From positions 1-60,088 of the IMG/VR virus record IMGVR_UViG_3300005758_000016: a stretch of 60,088 nucleotides of DNA, one strand, 5' to 3'. This stretch comes from a virus (Duplodnaviria; Caudoviricetes). Made by a program: the position numbers and the translations under genes. The notes beneath the pieces are model-generated. The model did no database searches. It was not told the DNA's origin and saw nothing but the letters and a program-made list of their open reading frames with translations. Positions 25,492 through 39,858 of this stretch are shown piece after piece (within the stretch, counting starts at the first letter, position 1; each line of letters begins with the position of its first letter).

Positions 25492-27420
25492 TTAAGCTAC
25501 GTAACGTAGTGCGCTTACGCCAGCACCGTTGTTAGTTGTAACTTGTGTTAGACCTGTGCGTAGGCTTGCAACCATAACACGACGCTGTGTTTCCACTAGA
25601 TCGTCGGTGTCAACGCGTAGACCGCGCTGGTTACCTGCCAGGAAGTTCATTGGAGCAAAAGCGATTGCACCAACTTCACCGTCTGCTGGAGAAGCAAATT
25701 CAGCACTTACTAGCACTGGTGTGTTAGCAACGCTACCGATTTGACCAGTTAACAGAGTAGCTTGGCTACCGATTTTGTCAACAGTCTGGAAATCAGCATC
25801 GTCTAGTAGGTCATAGTAACCTTCTGTGCTTACGATATAGATCATTTCGGCTGGGTCTAGACCCCATGCGCCTAGATCACGACGCATAGCGCGTAGACGT
25901 GCAACAGTTAGTTTGTCAGCATTGCTGATATCTAGGGTGACTGCGCTTACTGCATCGTAACCAGCTAGACCTTTAACTGGGTCAGCGCCTGCACCTGCAC
26001 CGCGTAGATATGCGCGGTCAACAGCGCGAGCAACACGGCGAACCATGGCGTCACGGATAACAGGCATAATTGCTAGTAGCGCGTCTTCCTCTTCTTCGAA
26101 CGCAACATACTCGTTTGTAGCAACTTTGTATGCGTTCAGAGTGATTTCTTTTAGTTGGTGAGTAGCGTTGTTACCAGCACTGTTTGCTGTACCAAACTGT
26201 GCGTTTTGTACCCATGTTGCAACACCAGCTTCTGGGTTTACAGGGATAGTCATAACGTTAGTTTGCATCTGGATGCTACGTAGAGTAGGAGCAACAACTA
26301 GACGACGGCGAACTTCGTTTTCCATGTTTAGGCTAACTTCTAGTTCCCAGGTTGCGCTTGGAACGTGAGCACCAGCTTTTTCAACCATTTGACGACCAAA
26401 CTTGGTGTCGGCTAGAGCCTTACCGCTCATCTTGGCCAGCATAACTGCCTTTTCTTTGTCAGCGTAGCTTAGTTCACCAGCCTTGCTGTCGTTGAACTGC
26501 ATTTTGCTCTTTTGAATAGCTTCTAGTTCAGCAGCTTTTTCTTTTAGAGCAGCCTCTAGACCCTCTAGGGCTTTCTTGCTGGACTCTTGGGTCTCAGCAA
26601 GACGCTTTTCAACTTCGGCTAGCAGTTTGTCAGCGCCAGTTTCGCTTGGTGTAACAGCAGCAACTGCAGCTTTGATGCGTGCTTGTAGTTCGGCTTCTGC
26701 TTTTTCAGCAGCAGCTTTTTCAGCAGCAGCTTTCTCTTGGGCTTCAACTAAAGCCTTGGCAGCTTGTGTAGCGGCTTTTTCAGCAGCAGCAGCCAACATT
26801 TGTTCTAATTCTTTTGGATCCATTTTCCATTCCTTATTAACAGTACTGTTTGCTGTACCAGAGGCTTCTAGCCCTTTAGCTGAGTCGCTACTAGCTGCAA
26901 ACTGCATTTTAAAAGATTTAAATTCTTCGGCACTTTCAAACGCCTTAGAGAGACTAAATAGAGTATTTTGATTTGCTGGTACAGAAACTACACTAATTTC
27001 GTGCAGTTCCAACTCTTTGACCATAAACACTTCTGCGGCTGAATTGTATTCTGCATCTACGATGCGGAATCCAATACTAAAAGCTGTTAAGACGCCATCT
27101 TTAACTAAATTAAACACGTCTTCGGCGGCTGCGGAAACTCTGGCTTTGATCCAAAGTCCTTTTTCGTCGATTCTGTGTTCTACCATTCTGCCAATCGGCT
27201 CGTCGTGTTTGTGGTACGCAAGAATTACTGGATTCTTCAAGTAATTCTGCATGCCTTTTTCCCAAACACCCGCCGGGACTACGTCACCGTGTCGATCAAT
27301 ATCGTTGGTACTTGCGTAGCCTTCGATAGTGATGGAATCAACAGTGCCTTCAGCAGTTGGTAGTTCGCTTTTAGTTACAAGGGCACCTGTTAAGTGCAGT
27401 AACTTATTTTTATCTACCAT
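25492..27420 (-). CDS. HK97-type prohead protease fused to major capsid protein
   Basis: IEGYAST..DR.GD, FSIGF, EISVVSVPAN protease motifs; then coiled-coil delta domain and HK97 capsid fold; internal AAGGA-7 nt-ATG at 26823. Confidence 0.9.
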   Translation of the reverse strand: MVDKNKLLHLTGALVTKSELPTAEGTVDSITIEGYASTNDIDRHGDVVPAGVWEKGMQNYLKNPVILAYHKHDEPIGRMVEHRIDEKGLWIKARVSAAAEDVFNLVKDGVLTAFSIGFRIVDAEYNSAAEVFMVKELELHEISVVSVPANQNTLFSLSKAFESAEEFKSFKMQFAASSDSAKGLEASGTANSTVNKEWKMDPKELEQMLAAAAEKAATQAAKALVEAQEKAAAEKAAAEKAEAELQARIKAAVAAVTPSETGADKLLAEVEKRLAETQESSKKALEGLEAALKEKAAELEAIQKSKMQFNDSKAGELSYADKEKAVMLAKMSGKALADTKFGRQMVEKAGAHVPSATWELEVSLNMENEVRRRLVVAPTLRSIQMQTNVMTIPVNPEAGVATWVQNAQFGTANSAGNNATHQLKEITLNAYKVATNEYVAFEEEEDALLAIMPVIRDAMVRRVARAVDRAYLRGAGAGADPVKGLAGYDAVSAVTLDISNADKLTVARLRAMRRDLGAWGLDPAEMIYIVSTEGYYDLLDDADFQTVDKIGSQATLLTGQIGSVANTPVLVSAEFASPADGEVGAIAFAPMNFLAGNQRGLRVDTDDLVETQRRVMVASLRTGLTQVTTNNGAGVSALRYVA

Positions 27421-32567: not shown

Positions 32568-32688
32568 GTAATACTTTTGTTTTCAGATGGAATTGAAAAC
32601 AAAAGTATTACCCTGCAGGCGCCAATATTATACCATAATATTGGCTGGCGTGTCAATAGGTACATGTACCTATGTTGTATTTTTGCAC
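32568..32688. repeat. Pre-early intergenic module: 18-8-18 palindrome + leftward promoter + TGTTGTATTT box
   Basis: GTAATACTTTTGTTTTCA-N8-TGAAAACAAAAGTATTAC, GGCGCC, then minus-strand TTGACA-18 nt-TATAAT. Confidence 0.9.
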
Positions 32689-32727
32689 GGGTGCTTGTAG
32701 CGTGTGAAACCTGATATAATTGGCAGC

Positions 32728-32868: not shown

Positions 32869-33189
32869 ATGCGTGAATATATCCAATATCTGAAACTGAA
32901 AAAGCCGGTACAATTAACCGTGGTTAATCGTCAGCATAAATCGACCGATGCGGAATATGAAACAGATTATCGTGATAATGGGCAAATTAATTGCCACTTA
33001 ATCACAATCTGGAATAATCCCCATTCGCGTGATTTTAATACACTGGTTGCCCATGAGTTAATTCATGCATGGCAGGCTGAGAATAACAAAACTGAAATTC
33101 ATGGCCCGTATTTTGTAAAACTGGCTCGCAAAATGGAAACCAAATTTGGTTTGCGTGAAGTTTATTTACCCGGAATTGATGAGGAATAA
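32869..33189 (+). CDS. SprT-like zinc metalloprotease domain protein
   Basis: AHELIH..HG..F motif. Confidence 0.7.
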   Translation: MREYIQYLKLKKPVQLTVVNRQHKSTDAEYETDYRDNGQINCHLITIWNNPHSRDFNTLVAHELIHAWQAENNKTEIHGPYFVKLARKMETKFGLREVYLPGIDEE

Positions 33190-33191
33190 TG

Positions 33192-33310
33192 AATACCTTG
33201 GTTTTCAGATAAGATTGAAAACCAAGGCATTACTTTGTGGGCGCCAAAATTATACCACATAATTTTGGGCTGTGTCAATAGGGGTTTCCACCTATGTTGT
33301 ATTTTTGCAC
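33192..33310. repeat. Pre-early intergenic module copy
   Basis: AATACCTTGGTTTTCA-N8-TGAAAACCAAGGCATT with compensatory changes, plus leftward promoter. Confidence 0.85.
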
Positions 33311-33376
33311 TGGTGGTCTGGTGGGCGAAAACGTGGTACAATACACCCATGTTCAACGAAACTGAGGTTTCACAAA

Positions 33377-33853
33377 ATGGCTAAAATCAAGCGTGTTGCA
33401 ATTTACGATATGGACGGAACCATTGTAGATTCCAGTCACCGTTACCGTACCATTACAGATGAAAATGGAACCCGTATTGATTTGGATTACTGGCGTGAAA
33501 ATGAATATCGCGCAATGGAAGACGGATTATTGCCCATGTTTGAGCAATATCGCCGTGATTTGGCTGATCCTGAAACGTACGTTATTATTGCCACTGCCAG
33601 GGTAATGAATGAACCCGATTGGCAATTTGTAAATGAGATTCTCGGGATGCCTGATTATTTTATTAGCCGCCCGAAAGATTCCAGCGTATCAGGCAAAACC
33701 CTGAAAACCAATGGCTTGGCTAAATTCTTTAATTTGGTTAATTTCAAAGATGCGGATTTTGTTTTTTATGAGGACAATATCCAGTATTTAAAAGCGGTTT
33801 GTGATCGCTTTAATATCCGGGGCGTTTATATTCCCTCGGTTCAGGGTCACTGA
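33377..33853 (+). CDS. HAD-family phosphatase (PNK phosphatase-like)
   Basis: DMDGT, TAR, K and FYEDN motifs. Confidence 0.8.
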   Translation: MAKIKRVAIYDMDGTIVDSSHRYRTITDENGTRIDLDYWRENEYRAMEDGLLPMFEQYRRDLADPETYVIIATARVMNEPDWQFVNEILGMPDYFISRPKDSSVSGKTLKTNGLAKFFNLVNFKDADFVFYEDNIQYLKAVCDRFNIRGVYIPSVQGH

Positions 33854-34338: not shown

Positions 34339-35037
34339 ATGGCTAAAAAGCAATTCTTTGCGATTCTCGACACTGAAACTACCATTAACGATACTGTGGC
34401 TGATTTTGCTATCATTATCGTTGACCGTAATGGCGCGATTCATAATCAATGCGCGGTTTTGGTTAAAAATCATTTTGACACAATGGAATTATTCCATGAT
34501 AAAAATGCAAATGATATTTGGGGTTATGCTGGCCTGAATAAACGTAAAGCCAATTATAATACCATGCTTGATAATGGCGTGCGTATGCTTGCCTCAGTTA
34601 GCGCAATTAATCGTTGGATCAATCAAGCCATTGGCAAATATAACCCGACATTAACCGCATATAATCTGGCATTTGATACTGCAAAATGTGCAAATACTGG
34701 TATTGACCTCACTGGGTTTACCTCACGATTTTGTCTTTGGCAAGCTGCCATTGGTAATATTTGCAATACCCGCAAATTCAAACAATTTGCCCTTGATAAT
34801 CACGCATTTAATGCGGTTACCGCACATGGTAATATGACATTCAAAACTAATGCCGAGATTGTTTGCGGGTTTATTAATGGCGAATTCAAAACCGAACCAC
34901 ATACTGCCCTTGAAGATGCGCGGGATTTTGAATTGCCGATTTTGACCCAGATTATTAAAAAGCGCGACTGGCGCGATAATATCAAGCCGTATAACTGGAA
35001 AGAATTTCAAACCAAGGATCATTTTAAACCCGTTTAA
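34339..35037 (+). CDS. DEDDh 3'-5' exonuclease
   Basis: LDTET, AYN..FD, HTALEDA. Confidence 0.85.
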   Translation: MAKKQFFAILDTETTINDTVADFAIIIVDRNGAIHNQCAVLVKNHFDTMELFHDKNANDIWGYAGLNKRKANYNTMLDNGVRMLASVSAINRWINQAIGKYNPTLTAYNLAFDTAKCANTGIDLTGFTSRFCLWQAAIGNICNTRKFKQFALDNHAFNAVTAHGNMTFKTNAEIVCGFINGEFKTEPHTALEDARDFELPILTQIIKKRDWRDNIKPYNWKEFQTKDHFKPV

Positions 35038-35168: not shown

Positions 35169-35417
35169 ATGGAAACTATCGGCTGGATTGGCGGGATTTT
35201 ATTGGCATTTTGTGGATTACCCCAAGCGTGGGAATCGTATAGGACAAAATCATCGGCAGGATTAACCTGGGGATTTTTGAGTATGTGGTTTTTGGGTGAG
35301 ATATTCACCATCATATACATAATCCCGAAATGGCATTGGCCCTTAATTTTCAATTACACGGCTAATATATTCTTCCTGCTGATAATCATTTACTACAAAA
35401 TTAAGCCCAGTAAATAA
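35169..35417 (+). CDS. PQ-loop (SemiSWEET-like) membrane protein
   Basis: IGWIGG..LPQ..RTKS..GL; three predicted TM helices. Confidence 0.8.
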   Translation: METIGWIGGILLAFCGLPQAWESYRTKSSAGLTWGFLSMWFLGEIFTIIYIIPKWHWPLIFNYTANIFFLLIIIYYKIKPSK

Positions 35418-35450: not shown

Positions 35451-35601
35451 GCTGCTTATATAAGCACATGCATATATAAGCAACTGCTTATATATGGGCG
35501 CCAATTATACACCTATAATTGTGCCCGTGTCAAGAAAAATCAAAAAACATATTTTGCGTGTGTGGTTGCAAAACAACAGTCTGGTGGTGTATAATATGGA
35601 C

Positions 35602-35982
35602 ATGGACAAAACCACACTTTTAAACATCCTACGGCGTGAAACTATAATGCTTTGGGATACACTTTGCGAGATTTATACTCCATTGGTTCACAGAAACGAA
35701 CCCATGGTAGAACTTAATCCCTACTGCTGGCGTACTGCTGGACTGTGTTTTCAGGACGAAAACCGCATACAATTGAGTTACAAATTTTTTGTGGCTAATA
35801 CAAAATATCGCGATTACATGCTGAATGTAATACTACCGCATGAGGTTGCACATCAGGCTGACTGGTTTTTATATGGCGAAAGCGAAAAAACCTGTGGGCA
35901 TGGCGTGCGCTGGTGCGAAATTATGGTACAATTAGGGCTTGAGCCTAACCCGTTTCACAACATGGAGATTCCCCGAAAATGA
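35602..35982 (+). CDS. SprT-like metalloprotease
   Basis: RTAG.C..PHEVAH..HG.RW..IM motif; start may be 35596 or 35602. Confidence 0.8.
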   Translation: MDKTTLLNILRRETIMLWDTLCEIYTPLVHRNEPMVELNPYCWRTAGLCFQDENRIQLSYKFFVANTKYRDYMLNVILPHEVAHQADWFLYGESEKTCGHGVRWCEIMVQLGLEPNPFHNMEIPRK

Positions 35983-36191
35983 TTACTTTTGTTTCTTGGT
36001 TCGGTACAGTTGCCTCAATTTTGGGCAGTTTTGCCGTTGCAACCAAAATGTTTCAAATTGGGTATGTACTGTTTACTTTTGGTTCGCTGGCTTGGTTGTT
36101 TGTGGCCTGGACGCGCAAAGATCGTGCGCTTGGTGTACTAAACGGCACATTTTTTGTTGCAAATGTAATCGGATTGGTTAACTTTTTTTAA
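35979..36191 (+). CDS. Small three-TM membrane protein
   Basis: Hydrophobic profile; ATGA coupling. Confidence 0.6.
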   Translation: MITFVSWFGTVASILGSFAVATKMFQIGYVLFTFGSLAWLFVAWTRKDRALGVLNGTFFVANVIGLVNFF

Positions 36192-36224
36192 AAGGGCGCA
36201 AGCCCTTTTTATTTTGCCCCAATA

Positions 36225-36343
36225 TAATACTTTTGTTTTCAGGTGGAATTGAAAACAAAAGTATTACAGGCGGTGCGCCAAAATTATATCATAATTTTGC
36301 GGCCCCGGTCAATAGGTGTTTCCCCCTATGTTGTATTTGTACA
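36225..36343. repeat. Pre-early intergenic module copy
   Basis: TAATACTTTTGTTTTCA-N8-TGAAAACAAAAGTATTA plus leftward TTGACC..TATAAT. Confidence 0.9.
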
Positions 36344-36438
36344 AATTGCAAAAAAGTCTTGTTTGTGGGGCTGGTTTGCGTTATAATAATCCCATACCGC
36401 AGCGAAGGGCGCAGCGGAATAACCCGAAAGGTAACACT

Positions 36439-36771
36439 ATGGAAAAGACTAGCAAAACTGTCAACTATTCCCCTGAAATGACTGCAAAAATGGTTGCCGA
36501 TTATGCGGCTGGCGTGACTGTGGAAGCAATCGCTAGCGAACTGGGCAAATCGGTTCGCTCGATTGTTGCTAAACTGTCGCGCGAGGGTGTTTACCAGAAA
36601 AAGACCTACAAAACTAAAACTGGCGAGCCAGTCGTGAAAAAAGACGCTCACGCGGACGCTATCGGCGCGATTTTGCGGTTGCCTGAAAATGATATTGAAT
36701 CACTGACAAAAGCGAACAAATCGGCACTGAAGGCGATTTTCGAAGCCCTTGCAAATAGCAAGCCACTGTAA
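36439..36771 (+). CDS. T5 A2-like DNA-binding protein, paralog 2
   Basis: Highly similar to 32223-32546. Confidence 0.7.
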   Translation: MEKTSKTVNYSPEMTAKMVADYAAGVTVEAIASELGKSVRSIVAKLSREGVYQKKTYKTKTGEPVVKKDAHADAIGAILRLPENDIESLTKANKSALKAIFEALANSKPL

Positions 36772-36820
36772 ATAATGGGGCATAATGCCCCATTTACCGT
36801 TCAATCAAAAAGGATTTAAA

Positions 36821-37057
36821 ATGATTTTCACATTTGAAGAATTGCACGTTAATCTGGCAGACTATAATGGTTTTCAGGTTGCCACTATTAATGCGGTTAT
36901 TATTGACCGGGCTGCAAACTATTATAAGGATATTTGCGGTTTTGAAGGTTGGCCTGATGAAGAACTATTTAAAAATTTTGATTGGGGGGTTGACTTGGTG
37001 CAACGATTAATTTATATTCCAGATAATGCGCTAGTTATTCAGCCGCTTTATCATTAA
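36821..37057 (+). CDS. Hypothetical protein
   Basis: AAGGA RBS; ORF track. Confidence 0.55.
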   Translation: MIFTFEELHVNLADYNGFQVATINAVIIDRAANYYKDICGFEGWPDEELFKNFDWGVDLVQRLIYIPDNALVIQPLYH

Positions 37058-37104
37058 AATAAAACCCCGAGATAATCGGGGTTTTATTTTGCCCAAAATC
37101 GGTT

Positions 37105-37231
37105 GTAATACTTGGTTTTCAGAAAAAATTGAAAACAAAAGTATTACAAACTTGCGCCAAAATTATATCATAATTTTGGAGCGCGTGTCAAGCGTCTTTA
37201 CAAATCTTTACACTGTGTTGTATTTTCGCAC
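37105..37231. repeat. Pre-early intergenic module copy
   Basis: GTAATACTTGGTTTTCA-N8-TGAAAACAAAAGTATTAC plus leftward TTGACA..TATAAT. Confidence 0.85.
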
Positions 37232-37319
37232 TTGCGCATATATGCATGCGCTTATATAAGCACCCACGAATATAAGCCACCGCGCATATGTGTACTTTTG
37301 TACTACACGCAGCGCAGCA

Positions 37320-37396
37320 GCGCCAGTGGCTAATCAAGTGCAAAAACTCCCACGTGCCGCGCGCCAGTGGCCAATCAAGTGCAAAAACTCCCACGT
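37320..37396. repeat. 36-bp direct repeat x2
   Basis: GCGCCAGTGGCYAATCAAGTGCAAAAACTCCCACGT at 37320 and 37361. Confidence 0.9.
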
Positions 37397-37538
37397 AGGT
37401 CGCGTGCGCCCATTATACAGTGGAAAACCTTTCCAAGTCAAGTGTATTTTCACCGCGGCTTACCAAACACAAAAATCTTGTCTTGTTGTCTGCAACCCAT
37501 TGGGCTATAATAACTATATTGATTGAAAGGAATCCCAC

Positions 37539-37673
37539 ATGACTGACAATGAATTTTTTAGGCTGGATCAGGAGGCGTGGTACGCGGAGTGGGTGGACCA
37601 CGAAGTCCGCGAAATTGTGAGTGATACCTACCCCCACACCGAAAACTTTGCATTTGACGACATTCCGTTTTGA
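37539..37673 (+). CDS. 44-aa acidic peptide ending in SSB-like tail FDDIPF (not in ORF track)
   Basis: GAAAGGA RBS, own promoter; MTDNEFFRLDQEAWYAEWVDHEVREIVSDTYPHTENFAFDDIPF. Confidence 0.65.
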   Translation: MTDNEFFRLDQEAWYAEWVDHEVREIVSDTYPHTENFAFDDIPF

Positions 37674-37720
37674 GTATATAATAATCTTTTAATCAGCGCA
37701 GAAACCAAACGAAAGGACAT

Positions 37721-38032
37721 ATGATGACTGACGCAACTAAAACCAACTACACCGAAGCACAAACCCTGGAACTGGTGACTCGCTACCAAGCGGGTGAAAC
37801 TGTAGAAGCCTTGGCCGAGGCTGTGGGCAAGAGTGTACGCAGCGTGGTAGCCAAGCTCAGCCGCGAAGGTGTGTATCAAGCCAAGACCAAGAGCAAGGGC
37901 ACTGCTCGCGTTACCAAGGCTGCACTGACCGGTTTGCTGGAAAGCAAGCTGGGCATGGACCCCGGCAGCCTGGAAAGCCTGCAAAAGGCTTCACACGACC
38001 AACTGGAAGCACTGGTTGACCGGGTAGTTTAA
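37721..38032 (+). CDS. T5 A2-like DNA-binding protein, paralog 3
   Basis: NYT..GKSVRSVVAKLSREGVY..ESL.KA. Confidence 0.7.
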   Translation: MMTDATKTNYTEAQTLELVTRYQAGETVEALAEAVGKSVRSVVAKLSREGVYQAKTKSKGTARVTKAALTGLLESKLGMDPGSLESLQKASHDQLEALVDRVV

Positions 38033-38230
38033 GTTTAGGGTCAGAAAATCCATACTTGATCTTCTGACCCAAACCCGGTATAATAATATCTTAGACAGTT
38101 GAGAAGGGCCTTGTTAAATGGCAAGCAATTGCCGGCCTGTTCAGCTCAGCAGCCCACCTCGCTAATCAGTGATTACTCGACGTCGTATCTGTGTGGCTAG
38201 TCTGTTTGCGGCAACTGTCTAATTTTCGAC

Positions 38231-38259
38231 TTGAACTTATACTTAAACTACTGTATAAT
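38231..38259 (+). promoter_or_regulatory. Sigma70 promoter of RNA operon
   Basis: TTGAAC-17 nt-TATAAT; a second one, TTGATC-17 nt-TATAAT, at 38056-38084. Confidence 0.7.
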
Positions 38260-38358
38260 TTATATATATATATTGAAGACAGGGTGACAGCGGGCAGCGT
38301 CAAGCTGATACGTCTTAATTGTGGAGAAAATGCACTCCGAGCCACAGCCCCGAGCACA

Positions 38359-38541
38359 CTAAAGCGAAAGCTATCAGCTACTTGCTGGTAGTGCTAAGCA
38401 AAAACAGAAGTTACCGTTGTGCCAACCCCTATGCGATCTTAGTTCAGACAGTGCAATCGCCGCACTAGCGTTAGGATGTACCGGCAGTGTGGGCCAGTTC
38501 GCAGCTCAGGGTTTTGCTTGCAGTGATAGCTTTCGCTTTAG
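38359..38541 (+). ncRNA. Stem-closed structured RNA
   Basis: Perfect 18-bp inverted repeat CTAAAGCGAAAGCTATCA/TGATAGCTTTCGCTTTAG with nested AAGCAAAA/TTTTGCTT; no credible ORF. Confidence 0.6.
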
Positions 38542-38618
38542 GGTGTTATGAGATCATGTTTGATGAATAACAACTTAATGGCCACCGAATACTTCTCTAG
38601 TGGCCGCCCAACCAATAT

Positions 38619-38694
38619 GCTTCCATCGTCTATCGGCTAGGACACCGCCCTTTCACGGCGGGAAGGAGGGGTTCGATTCCCCCTGGAAGTACCA
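38619..38694 (+). tRNA. tRNA-Glu(UUC)
   Basis: Cloverleaf, loop CTTTCAC, encoded CCA. Confidence 0.92.
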
Positions 38695-38696
38695 AA

Positions 38697-38799
38697 ATCC
38701 ACTGATGAGCACCCTGCAATGGGGCGAAACTCTCAGGAGCGCAGTGCAAGTGTACGGACCCTAGACCCAGTCCTGCTTGCAACGCCTGAGGGTCTGGAT
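38697..38799 (+). ncRNA. Type I hammerhead ribozyme
   Basis: Stem I ATCCA/TGGAT, core CTGATGA, stem II, GAAA, stem III CTCTCAGG/CCTGAGGG, GUC cleavage triplet at 38792-38794. Confidence 0.85.
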
Positions 38800-39310
38800 G
38801 AAAACCCAGCGAAACCAGGACGCCTGTCCCTCCCGAAGCCTAGTAGCCATGCGCGAACACCGGACGGAGCTATGGCTGAAAGTGAGTAACTGGAAATGAG
38901 TAACTCCAAGGCCCGCACGGTCTATATCCAGTGCCGCCTTATCCTGTACCGGCGTTAAATGGTCTTGATGTATAGTGTGGCTACTAATCGGCCCGAGATG
39001 GTGAGGCTCCTGAAACTCGTTAAAACAGAGTTCAATAAAGTATGGTTGTGCGTAGCCAACCCGACCCTAAACCGGCGTGGTCGTTAAAGTGCGGAACCCC
39101 TCAAAGCGTAAAGAGGCAAAAAATGTACAGTGCAGGCGTTGATAGCGTAGCACAACAAGTCTCCCCTGCTGCAGATACCCAGGTTATTGTCCACAAAACC
39201 TGTTAATGTGCTGCGGTTTAGGGTCAGTGCAGTAAAACGGTGTTGGTACAGCCGGTGTAAGTCGCTGTTTGAGCAAACTAAAAACTTAAGGCTGTTGCAA
39301 CAGCCGGTGT
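38795..39310 (+). ncRNA. Candidate large structured ncRNA
   Basis: ORF-poor; long-range stems TAGTAGCCATGC/GTGTGGCTACTA and GACCCTAAACCG/CGGTTTAGGGTC; ends at a terminator. Confidence 0.45.
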
Positions 39311-39312
39311 TC

Positions 39313-39353
39313 AAAGCCCACCACAGGTCGCTCCTGTGGTGGGCTTTGTTTTG
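39313..39353 (+). terminator. Strong intrinsic terminator
   Basis: AAAGCCCACCACAGG/CCTGTGGTGGGCTTT followed by GTTTT. Confidence 0.8.
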
Positions 39354-39540
39354 CCCACACCAAGCTCACCACCAAAATTTCACACCCGGTCTGCGCCAAT
39401 TATACAGTGGTAAACCTGCAGGGTCAAGTGCATTTTCTGCATTTTGCTCGCCTGACCCTAAATTGGGGTAGTCTCCCGCAGGCACAAAAAAGCCCCCATT
39501 ATCGTCATGATAGTGGGGGCTTACTTGTTTTAAGTGGAGA

Positions 39541-39858
39541 TTACTCCGCATGGTGCGGTTTAGGGTCGAGTTTGGTCTCAATAAGTAGGAGCACGGTTTT
39601 GTTGACCTTTTCTAGACTCTCCAGTCGTTCACTATCCACCTGGAGCAGAGTGGCAAGGCGTTCGATGATCTCGCTTTTCTTTTGTGGCAGCTCACCACGC
39701 TTGTTGGTGTACACTTTTCGCTGGTAGACACCCAAACTTGAGAGCTTAGCAATTATGCTGCGACTTGGCACCTGCAGGGTTGTGGCCAGTTCCTCCACGG
39801 TCAGACCCCGCTTGTAGTCCTCGACCAGTTTATTTGTGATTTCGTTTGTGTATTTCAT
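39541..39858 (-). CDS. T5 A2-like DNA-binding protein, paralog 4 (divergent)
   Basis: YT.E..RSIIAKLSSLGVYQRK.Y..K.GE..K..ESLEKVNK. Confidence 0.65.
   Translation of the reverse strand: MKYTNEITNKLVEDYKRGLTVEELATTLQVPSRSIIAKLSSLGVYQRKVYTNKRGELPQKKSEIIERLATLLQVDSERLESLEKVNKTVLLLIETKLDPKPHHAE

Follow-up and report, generated by a model that had tools for sequence, protein, structure and literature searches.

The micro-ORF at 37539..37673 on the plus strand of the phage DNA described below belongs to a family that is real and protein-coding. The peg at the end of its product, valine or isoleucine followed by proline and an aromatic residue, is selected as protein, and so is the exact position of the stop codon. 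As to function, we give somewhat less than an even chance (about 0.45) to the reading, drawn from sequence, that the micro-protein is a decoy that plugs the SSB-tip pocket of at least one host enzyme, its helix adding affinity, specificity or multivalency.

The window, i.e., the whole stretch of DNA that was analysed, comes from IMG/VR as a virus record; it has 60,088 bases and an estimated completeness of 57%. The gene content of the phage resembles that of a T5-like siphovirus. The large terminase shares 50% identity with those of Vibrio phages of ~112-121 kb. Tape-measure, J-like tail, major tail, portal and protease-capsid genes lie on the minus strand between 0.4 and 31 kb, and there are 15 tRNA genes and three small D5-like HTH genes (phrog search). 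Megablast of the region 36000-39500 gave no match, and Rfam found tRNA alone above threshold in the window. As an aside, the 642-aa protein encoded at 25492-27420 (-) matches profiles of major head proteins along the whole sequence, and its first half also matches those of head maturation proteases; it appears to be a protease-capsid fusion.

The micro-ORF and its family

The micro-ORF comes with its own expression signals, and its product is predicted to consist of a helix and a linker followed by the tail:

37483..37511 (+), promoter of the micro-ORF: -35 TTGTTG (37483-37488), 17-nt spacer, perfect -10 TATAAT (37506-37511)
37527..37531 (+), Shine-Dalgarno word AAGGA, 7 nt 5' of the ATG; an SD-like word is found in 26 of 28 distinct loci
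37539..37673 (+), micro-ORF: ATG, 44 codons and TGA
37545..37625 (+), codons 3-29: a single acidic, aromatic-rich helix according to AlphaFold2, block pLDDT 85-95
37626..37646 (+), codons 30-36: variable linker, predicted to be disordered, pLDDT about 62
37647..37670 (+), codons 37-44: tail F-A-F-D-D-I-P-F, in the family mostly F-E-F-D-D-V-P-F

The first-pass annotation had described here an acidic ORF of 44 residues with a promoter and a strong ribosome binding site, ending in FAFDDIPF and too short for an OB fold. The ORF is real. Its frame runs from the ATG to F-A-F-D-D-I-P-F and TGA, and it encodes 12 acidic and 2 basic residues (pI 4.05). Its shortness was judged correctly, too: AlphaFold2 yields one helix and an unstructured tail, and the SSB profile PF00436 has no match anywhere in the window. 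Lacking an OB fold, the micro-protein is not an SSB. The claim about promoter and ribosome binding site needs a qualification. AAGGA, the perfect -10 box and the conserved layout bear it out, but the window's own -35 box is poor, with 3 of 6 consensus matches; a consensus scan left this promoter unlisted because fewer than four -35 positions match. Matched against the consensus, TTGnnn-17-TATAAT with an always perfect -10 box lies upstream of the micro-ORF in all 28 distinct loci with enough flank.

Traces of the locus are also seen in metatranscriptomic contigs (two libraries of one study): a 116-nt piece from a relative spans 37544-37637, and a loose end contains the tail of a relative. Because DNA carry-over is possible, these pieces do not prove transcription. 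In the sequencing runs that match the locus every share is small (≤0.19). The exact micro-protein is present in public protein sets.

Is the ending a coincidence? A degenerate DNA pattern for DDIPF-stop matches the window once and none of 100 shuffles, and, given the ORF composition, the 847 ORFs of at least 20 aa in the window should by chance yield 0.0004 cases of DD[ILV]PF at the C-terminus. Across many scanned windows a lone DDIPF end could still arise by chance. A chance origin is excluded, however, because 46 of 49 distinct family members retain D-[VIL]-P-X at their very end.

These 49 proteins were collected by several routes: the window and 34 further loci amount to 30 distinct DNA sequences, and 20 database proteins join them. 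Among 5.8 billion clusters, a word-indexed search found the micro-protein itself and two close relatives with 93% and 82% identity. An exhaustive HMMER search of 1.84 billion representatives gave 18 matches at E ≤ 0.001, of which 17 are proteins of 43-92 aa; the matches of greater length are N-terminal over-calls of the same micro-ORF. One HMMER match, P0021 (899 aa), is a low-complexity repeat protein and was dropped. Apart from it, the search, which was unrestricted in length, revealed no fused or longer form of the micro-protein among the 1.84 billion representatives. The frame is open in 33 of 35 DNA copies, the exceptions being L016, which is interrupted, and L015, which has another end.

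Pattern scans yielded 14 loci in viral contigs, 20 in metagenome contigs and one true locus in genome contigs. The latter is a phage contig that was binned into a Saccharibacteria MAG and, therefore, is no evidence of a host. The other two genome-contig matches were rejected as chance. They stem from an internal stretch of DnaE (Pol III alpha) in Burkholderiales MAGs (L041, 3001-3066; L042, 3001-3063), which reads E-N-F-A-F-E-D-I-P-L and shares 8 of 10 residues with the tail of the window. Such short strings thus arise without SSB function.

By sequence comparison the micro-protein family is a new one and an orphan. tblastn against 50,697 cultured phage records produced only three capsid matches at E = 7, which are noise. 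PHROGs contain no family (0) for the micro-protein. Pfam, queried with 25 members, showed nothing below E 0.02, and above that value noise in at most 2 of the 25. A profile search of the PDB with the family returned noise at E about 1, and the ESM Atlas no usable match to the micro-protein.

The AlphaFold2 model was built with a 25-sequence alignment and has a mean pLDDT of 81.5. Residues 30-44 are without secondary structure (pLDDT about 62). In the alignments F6 and E22 of the helix are invariant, and F7, Q11, W14 and E17 are kept in at least 90%. The hydrophobic residues are distributed all round the helix (hydrophobic moment 0.14). Such a helix is unlikely to be stable alone; presumably it associates with itself or is buried in a partner.

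Selection on the tail and a promoter within it

That the terminal I-P-F should recur in homologues, as the mimicry proposed in the first-pass annotation implies, turned out to be right for the frame of the motif and only partly right for its last residue. The three members outside the 46 have lost or changed the tail: L015 keeps the helix and has a different end; in L016 a premature TGA cuts the protein short, and the tail is encoded out of frame just downstream; in P0019 the tail is altered and extended. The 46 tails end in DVPF (26), DIPF (7), DVPL (6), DVPY (4), DLPF (1), DVPW (1) or DVPQ (1), i.e., the last residue is F in 34, L in 6, Y in 4, W in 1 and Q in 1. Proline at the penultimate position is found in all 46 tails and in all 21 distinct 44-codon DNA sequences. 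The tip is preceded by two Asp in the window and by one or two acidic residues in the family, where one subgroup reads F-L-D-V-P-F.

At the DNA level these conserved positions vary freely. In the 21 sequences Pro43 is encoded by CCC (9), CCG (4), CCA (4) or CCT (4), and residue 42, Val or Ile, by GTT (15), GTG (3) or ATT (3). The stop codon is TGA in 9, TAA in 7 and TAG in 5; its position is fixed. Substitution rates were calculated as pooled pairwise Nei-Gojobori estimates over 20 distinct 44-codon sequences, since L031 is internally out of register and was left out (21 to 20). The dN/dS ratios are:

whole ORF, 0.36
codons 2-29 (helix), 0.30
codons 30-36 (linker), 1.05
codons 37-41, 0.36 (pS 0.117, pN 0.044)
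codons 42-44 (V42-F44), 0.15 (pS 0.58)

By this measure, constraint on the protein is strongest in the last three codons of the micro-ORF.

The five codons before them are a different matter. There, synonymous change is nearly absent (pS 0.117 versus 0.5-0.6 elsewhere), and the reason is a second promoter that overlaps the end of the micro-ORF:

37654..37682 (+), promoter of the downstream HTH gene: -35 TTGACG (37654-37659), -10 TATAAT (37677-37682), 11 of 12 consensus matches

Its -35 box sits within the F-D-D codons, its -10 box begins 3 nt past the stop codon of the micro-ORF. A hexamer like TTG(A/T)nG, 17 nt and a perfect TATAAT are found at the ORF end in 26 of 28 distinct loci, TTGACG itself in 19. 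As the -35 box of the next promoter lies in them, the codons of F-E-F-D-D are nearly frozen in DNA, and this dual coding may account for the F-D-D share of the resemblance to DDDIPF. The last three codons, in contrast, fall into the promoter spacer, where no promoter constraint is known; the peg is selected as protein. It is also present where the promoter is absent or different: L034 ends in F-Q-D-I-P-F, L037 in L-L-D-L-P-F. The case illustrates that a promoter lying within the end of a coding sequence can leave its mark on a peptide motif and can itself be mistaken for one.

A decoy for SSB partners and its rivals

The tip of bacterial SSB is the docking handle for a dozen or more enzymes of bacterial replication, recombination and repair (PMC3159472). 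According to that paper, the decisive features are the extreme C-terminal position, the penultimate Pro, the terminal aromatic residue and the preceding Asp. The ssb113 exchange of Pro by Ser and that of Phe by Cys destroy partner binding, and Phe to Cys is lethal in E. coli SSB. In ExoI and RecQ, the side chain of the terminal Phe and its alpha-carboxyl group are held in a hydrophobic pocket with a basic residue, the Asp residues of the tip lying on a basic ridge (PMC3159472).

The micro-protein shares with this tip an acidic stretch, the order aliphatic-Pro-aromatic at the extreme C-terminus, the free carboxyl group and a disordered linker in front. The family as a whole has the C-terminal position, the Pro, the aliphatic residue and the linker, and the terminal Phe in part, other members having L, Y, W or Q in its place. 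It lacks the three Asp of DDDIPF, offering only one or two. Moreover, the SSB tip is attached to an OB fold, which the micro-protein does not have. All these comparisons refer to the tip of E. coli-type SSB, which may not be that of the actual host. Judged by sequence features, the SSB-tip reading is plausible, and the micro-protein may work like an SSB tip without belonging to the SSB family. What the first-pass annotation had suggested, a stand-alone mimic of the SSB tail that sequesters or redirects host replication, repair or defence enzymes on entry, is in part sustained by the conserved tip, the dN/dS of 0.15, the disordered linker and the features shared with SSB-Ct; it is weakened by the variable Phe, the dual-coded F-D-D and the three members without a tail. 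When the micro-protein (alignment A2) was modelled as a complex with E. coli ExoI (Swiss-Prot reference), the score was 0.00 in two runs without controls, a result that counts neither for nor against binding.

The decoy would work as follows. Host RNA polymerase would transcribe the micro-ORF, and the product would be composed of a 27-residue acidic, aromatic-rich helix, a floppy linker of 7 residues and the peg D-[VIL]-P-[aromatic or Leu]-COOH. The latter would imitate the chemistry of DDDIPF and enter the hydrophobic pocket with the basic lip by which host SSB-interacting enzymes take the SSB tip. The helix would provide more affinity or specificity for one such enzyme, or it would multimerise the peg. 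The host enzyme would thereby be uncoupled from SSB-coated DNA. The outcome might be host shut-off, anti-defence, or protection of phage DNA that is nicked or single-stranded. Replication of the phage would not need the SSB hub, since the gp32-like SSB of its relatives has no such tip.

The evidence for this SSB comes from the relatives. PF00436 is not matched in five related records, two of which are 91% and 93% complete, and no PF10991 protein was detected in four of these five or in the window. Two of the five (91% and 78% complete) encode a protein of 214-215 aa with a match to PHROG 1607 ('single strand DNA binding protein', E 1e-31) and a weak one to gp32 (L038, 1267-1911, G002; L039, 1390-2037, G004). 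Its C-terminus is acidic and has no Pro-aromatic tip. The window fragment contains neither the gene of a gp32-like SSB nor the replication module.

A wider claim would be that the family is a natural, encoded inhibitor of the SSB hub, with which T5-like phages cut restart, repair or nuclease enzymes off SSB-coated DNA and replicate with their own tip-less gp32-like SSB. We put it forward tentatively and consider it clearly short of an even bet. If it were true, phages would be shown to attack the SSB interaction hub, and a ready-made 44-residue probe or inhibitor would be at hand. It would also reveal which variants of the tip are tolerated in nature (Val for Ile; Tyr, Trp or Leu for Phe), and one of the many unannotated phage micro-ORFs would gain a function. 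The SSB tip is already pursued as an antibacterial target by inhibitors of the SSB interface. Synthetic mimetics of SSB-Ct and small molecules (PMC3594151, PMC10143822 and PMC5872125) follow the same proposed principle, occupation of the SSB-Ct pocket; they are man-made, whereas the micro-protein would be natural, encoded and equipped with an additional helix.

Other explanations have to be weighed. The foremost rival, itself unlikely, is a peg for a partner encoded by the phage (polymerase, helicase-primase, nuclease or the neighbouring HTH proteins) in the manner of T7 gp2.5 and gp4, with no mimicry of the host. T7 gp2.5 and gp4 have acidic C-terminal tails with a terminal Phe, and there are papers on the gp2.5 tail. 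The position of the micro-ORF would fit, for the phage block around it is strictly conserved, with a D5-like HTH gene on either side of the micro-ORF and an exonuclease-like gene upstream; so would the tolerance of L, Y and W at the end, where SSB is stricter. However, a Pro in the penultimate place and the sequence aliphatic-Pro-aromatic are the signature of bacterial SSB (PMC3159472). Less probable is an adaptor, a 'tail in trans', the helix of which would sit on the gp32-like SSB or on a D5-like HTH protein, the tip recruiting host enzymes to phage DNA rather than blocking them. The relatives' SSB indeed has no such tip, a helix that is hydrophobic all round needs a partner, and an engineered gp32 bearing the SSB-Ct tip is described in the methods part of PMC3159472; yet the micro-ORF is located apart from the replication module, which is outside the window.

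It is also conceivable, with still lower probability, that the helix is the working part and acts on some other host target, the likeness of the tail being largely a promoter by-product combined with a generic hydrophobic C-terminus. The good conservation of the helix with its invariant F6 and E22, the existence of a helix without tail in L015 and the coincidence of the -35 box with the F-D-D codons would agree with that. It is hard to reconcile with the last three residues, which lie in the promoter spacer and combine the lowest dN/dS with free synonymous change, or with L034 and L037, which keep the tail outside that promoter context. Finally, the ORF might be a product of chance, or a leader of which the translation alone matters, and there would be no functional protein at all. 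The ORF is very short, to be sure. Its frame, however, is open in nearly all copies, its dN/dS of 0.36 comes with region-specific constraint, and it has a conserved promoter and SD of its own. This last explanation is already disfavoured, and we consider it very improbable indeed.

The decoy reading has a counterpart of a kind in Gp168 of phage Twort, an inhibitor of the beta-clamp (PMC8565349). Gp168 is a small early phage product, as the micro-protein would be, and disabling a host replication hub, which Gp168 does, is proposed for the micro-protein. The means differ: Gp168 is reported to occupy the DNA channel of the clamp, while the micro-protein would mimic the SSB-tip motif. Searches of PHROGs, PDB profiles and Pfam disclosed no sequence relation between the two. 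A preprint on DRT4 (10.64898/2026.10.21.760695) deals with a different phage SSB of the DUF2815 type. A phage-encoded stand-alone mimic of the SSB tip was not found in the open full texts that were searched.

Genomic surroundings

Twelve loci were compared, and the order of the block is kept wherever the contig reaches far enough. It runs from a dmp-like HAD phosphatase via an exonuclease-like gene, a PQ-loop membrane protein, a SprT-like protein and a small membrane protein to an HTH gene; after it come, in some loci, a 78-aa gene, then a non-coding, repeat-rich stretch of about 0.45-0.6 kb, and finally the micro-ORF with a second HTH gene behind it. In L034 an additional gene follows the micro-ORF. 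Identity between loci is 43-68% for the micro-protein, about the same (44-68%) for the HTH protein downstream, and higher (74-90%) for the one upstream. Behind the micro-ORF the following features are found:

37694..37707 (+), 14-mer CAGCGCAGAAACCA in the 5' leader of the downstream HTH gene; single copy in the window
37721..38032 (+), downstream HTH gene: 103-aa D5-like DNA-binding protein (phrog_1725 and phrog_323), after the micro-ORF in 12 of 12 loci

Nearly all relatives have the 14-mer CAGCGCAGAAACCA with no more than one or two letters changed; it is absent in L034 and L037. The coding DNA on its flanks diverges by 30-55% among relatives. It is likely, from this pattern, an operator or an RNA element.

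The first-pass annotation had also called the gene pre-early. The label is compatible with the type of promoter and with the dmp neighbour, yet it is not established: the window, a 57% fragment with unmapped ends, has no A1 or A2. The dmp homologue, a HAD phosphatase akin to the T5-type deoxynucleoside-5'-monophosphatase, is encoded at 33386-33787 (29% identity, E 8e-13), 3.7 kb upstream of the micro-ORF. In the record of Providencia phage PR1 (Demerecviridae) dmp lies in the terminal repeat and adjoins A1 and A2; local tblastn found no homologues of the latter two within the incomplete window. With the pre-early genes of T5-like phages the micro-ORF, thus, has in common the sigma-70-type promoter, a small acidic product and a block with a dmp homologue. 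It differs in the missing A1/A2 and in having no homologue in the cultured phage records mentioned above.

Some further observations concern the same region. Three HTH paralogues of 103-110 aa, all D5-like and all conserved in relatives, bracket the micro-ORF: 36439-36771 (+), 37721-38032 (+) and 39541-39858 (-). In the same early block, two proteins with SprT-like metallopeptidase motifs are encoded at 32869-33189 and 35494-35982, and a small PQ-loop membrane protein at 35169-35417. The 224-aa protein of PHROG 20187 at 34363-35037 shows, by eye, an exonuclease-like D-T-E-T motif near its N-terminus.

The gap of 480 nt upstream of the micro-ORF, which measures 0.45-0.6 kb in relatives, contains palindromes of the GCTTATATAAGC type spaced by 16 nt and a direct repeat of 36 nt that occurs twice, 41 nt apart and 97% identical; the positions concerned are 37218-37292 and 35454-35496, and 37320-37396. 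Its sequence could be that of a binding array, an origin or a region resembling an injection stop. Between 32560 and 37300 a composite intergenic element is seen in 3-6 copies between plus-strand genes, e.g., at 32570-32693, 33192-33315, 36226-36349 and 37112-37191. It is composed of a hairpin, a palindromic core AATTATA..TATAATT and a perfect minus-strand TTGACA-18-TATAAT. The latter scores 12/12 at 33278, 34176, 35533 and 37191 and is aimed against the genes; in at least one case, at 33278, it points straight into a terminator-like hairpin.

In the stretch 38050-38700, some 570 nt lack a convincing ORF; they are flanked by a TTGATC-17-TATAAT promoter (38056-38084) and a tRNA-Glu gene (38619-38694). 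They include a 22-nt inverted repeat (38355-38376 / 38524-38545) with 95% complementarity, and two metatranscriptomic libraries of one study contain contigs (769 and 783 nt) that cover them. A non-coding RNA or the precursor of a tRNA may be encoded here.
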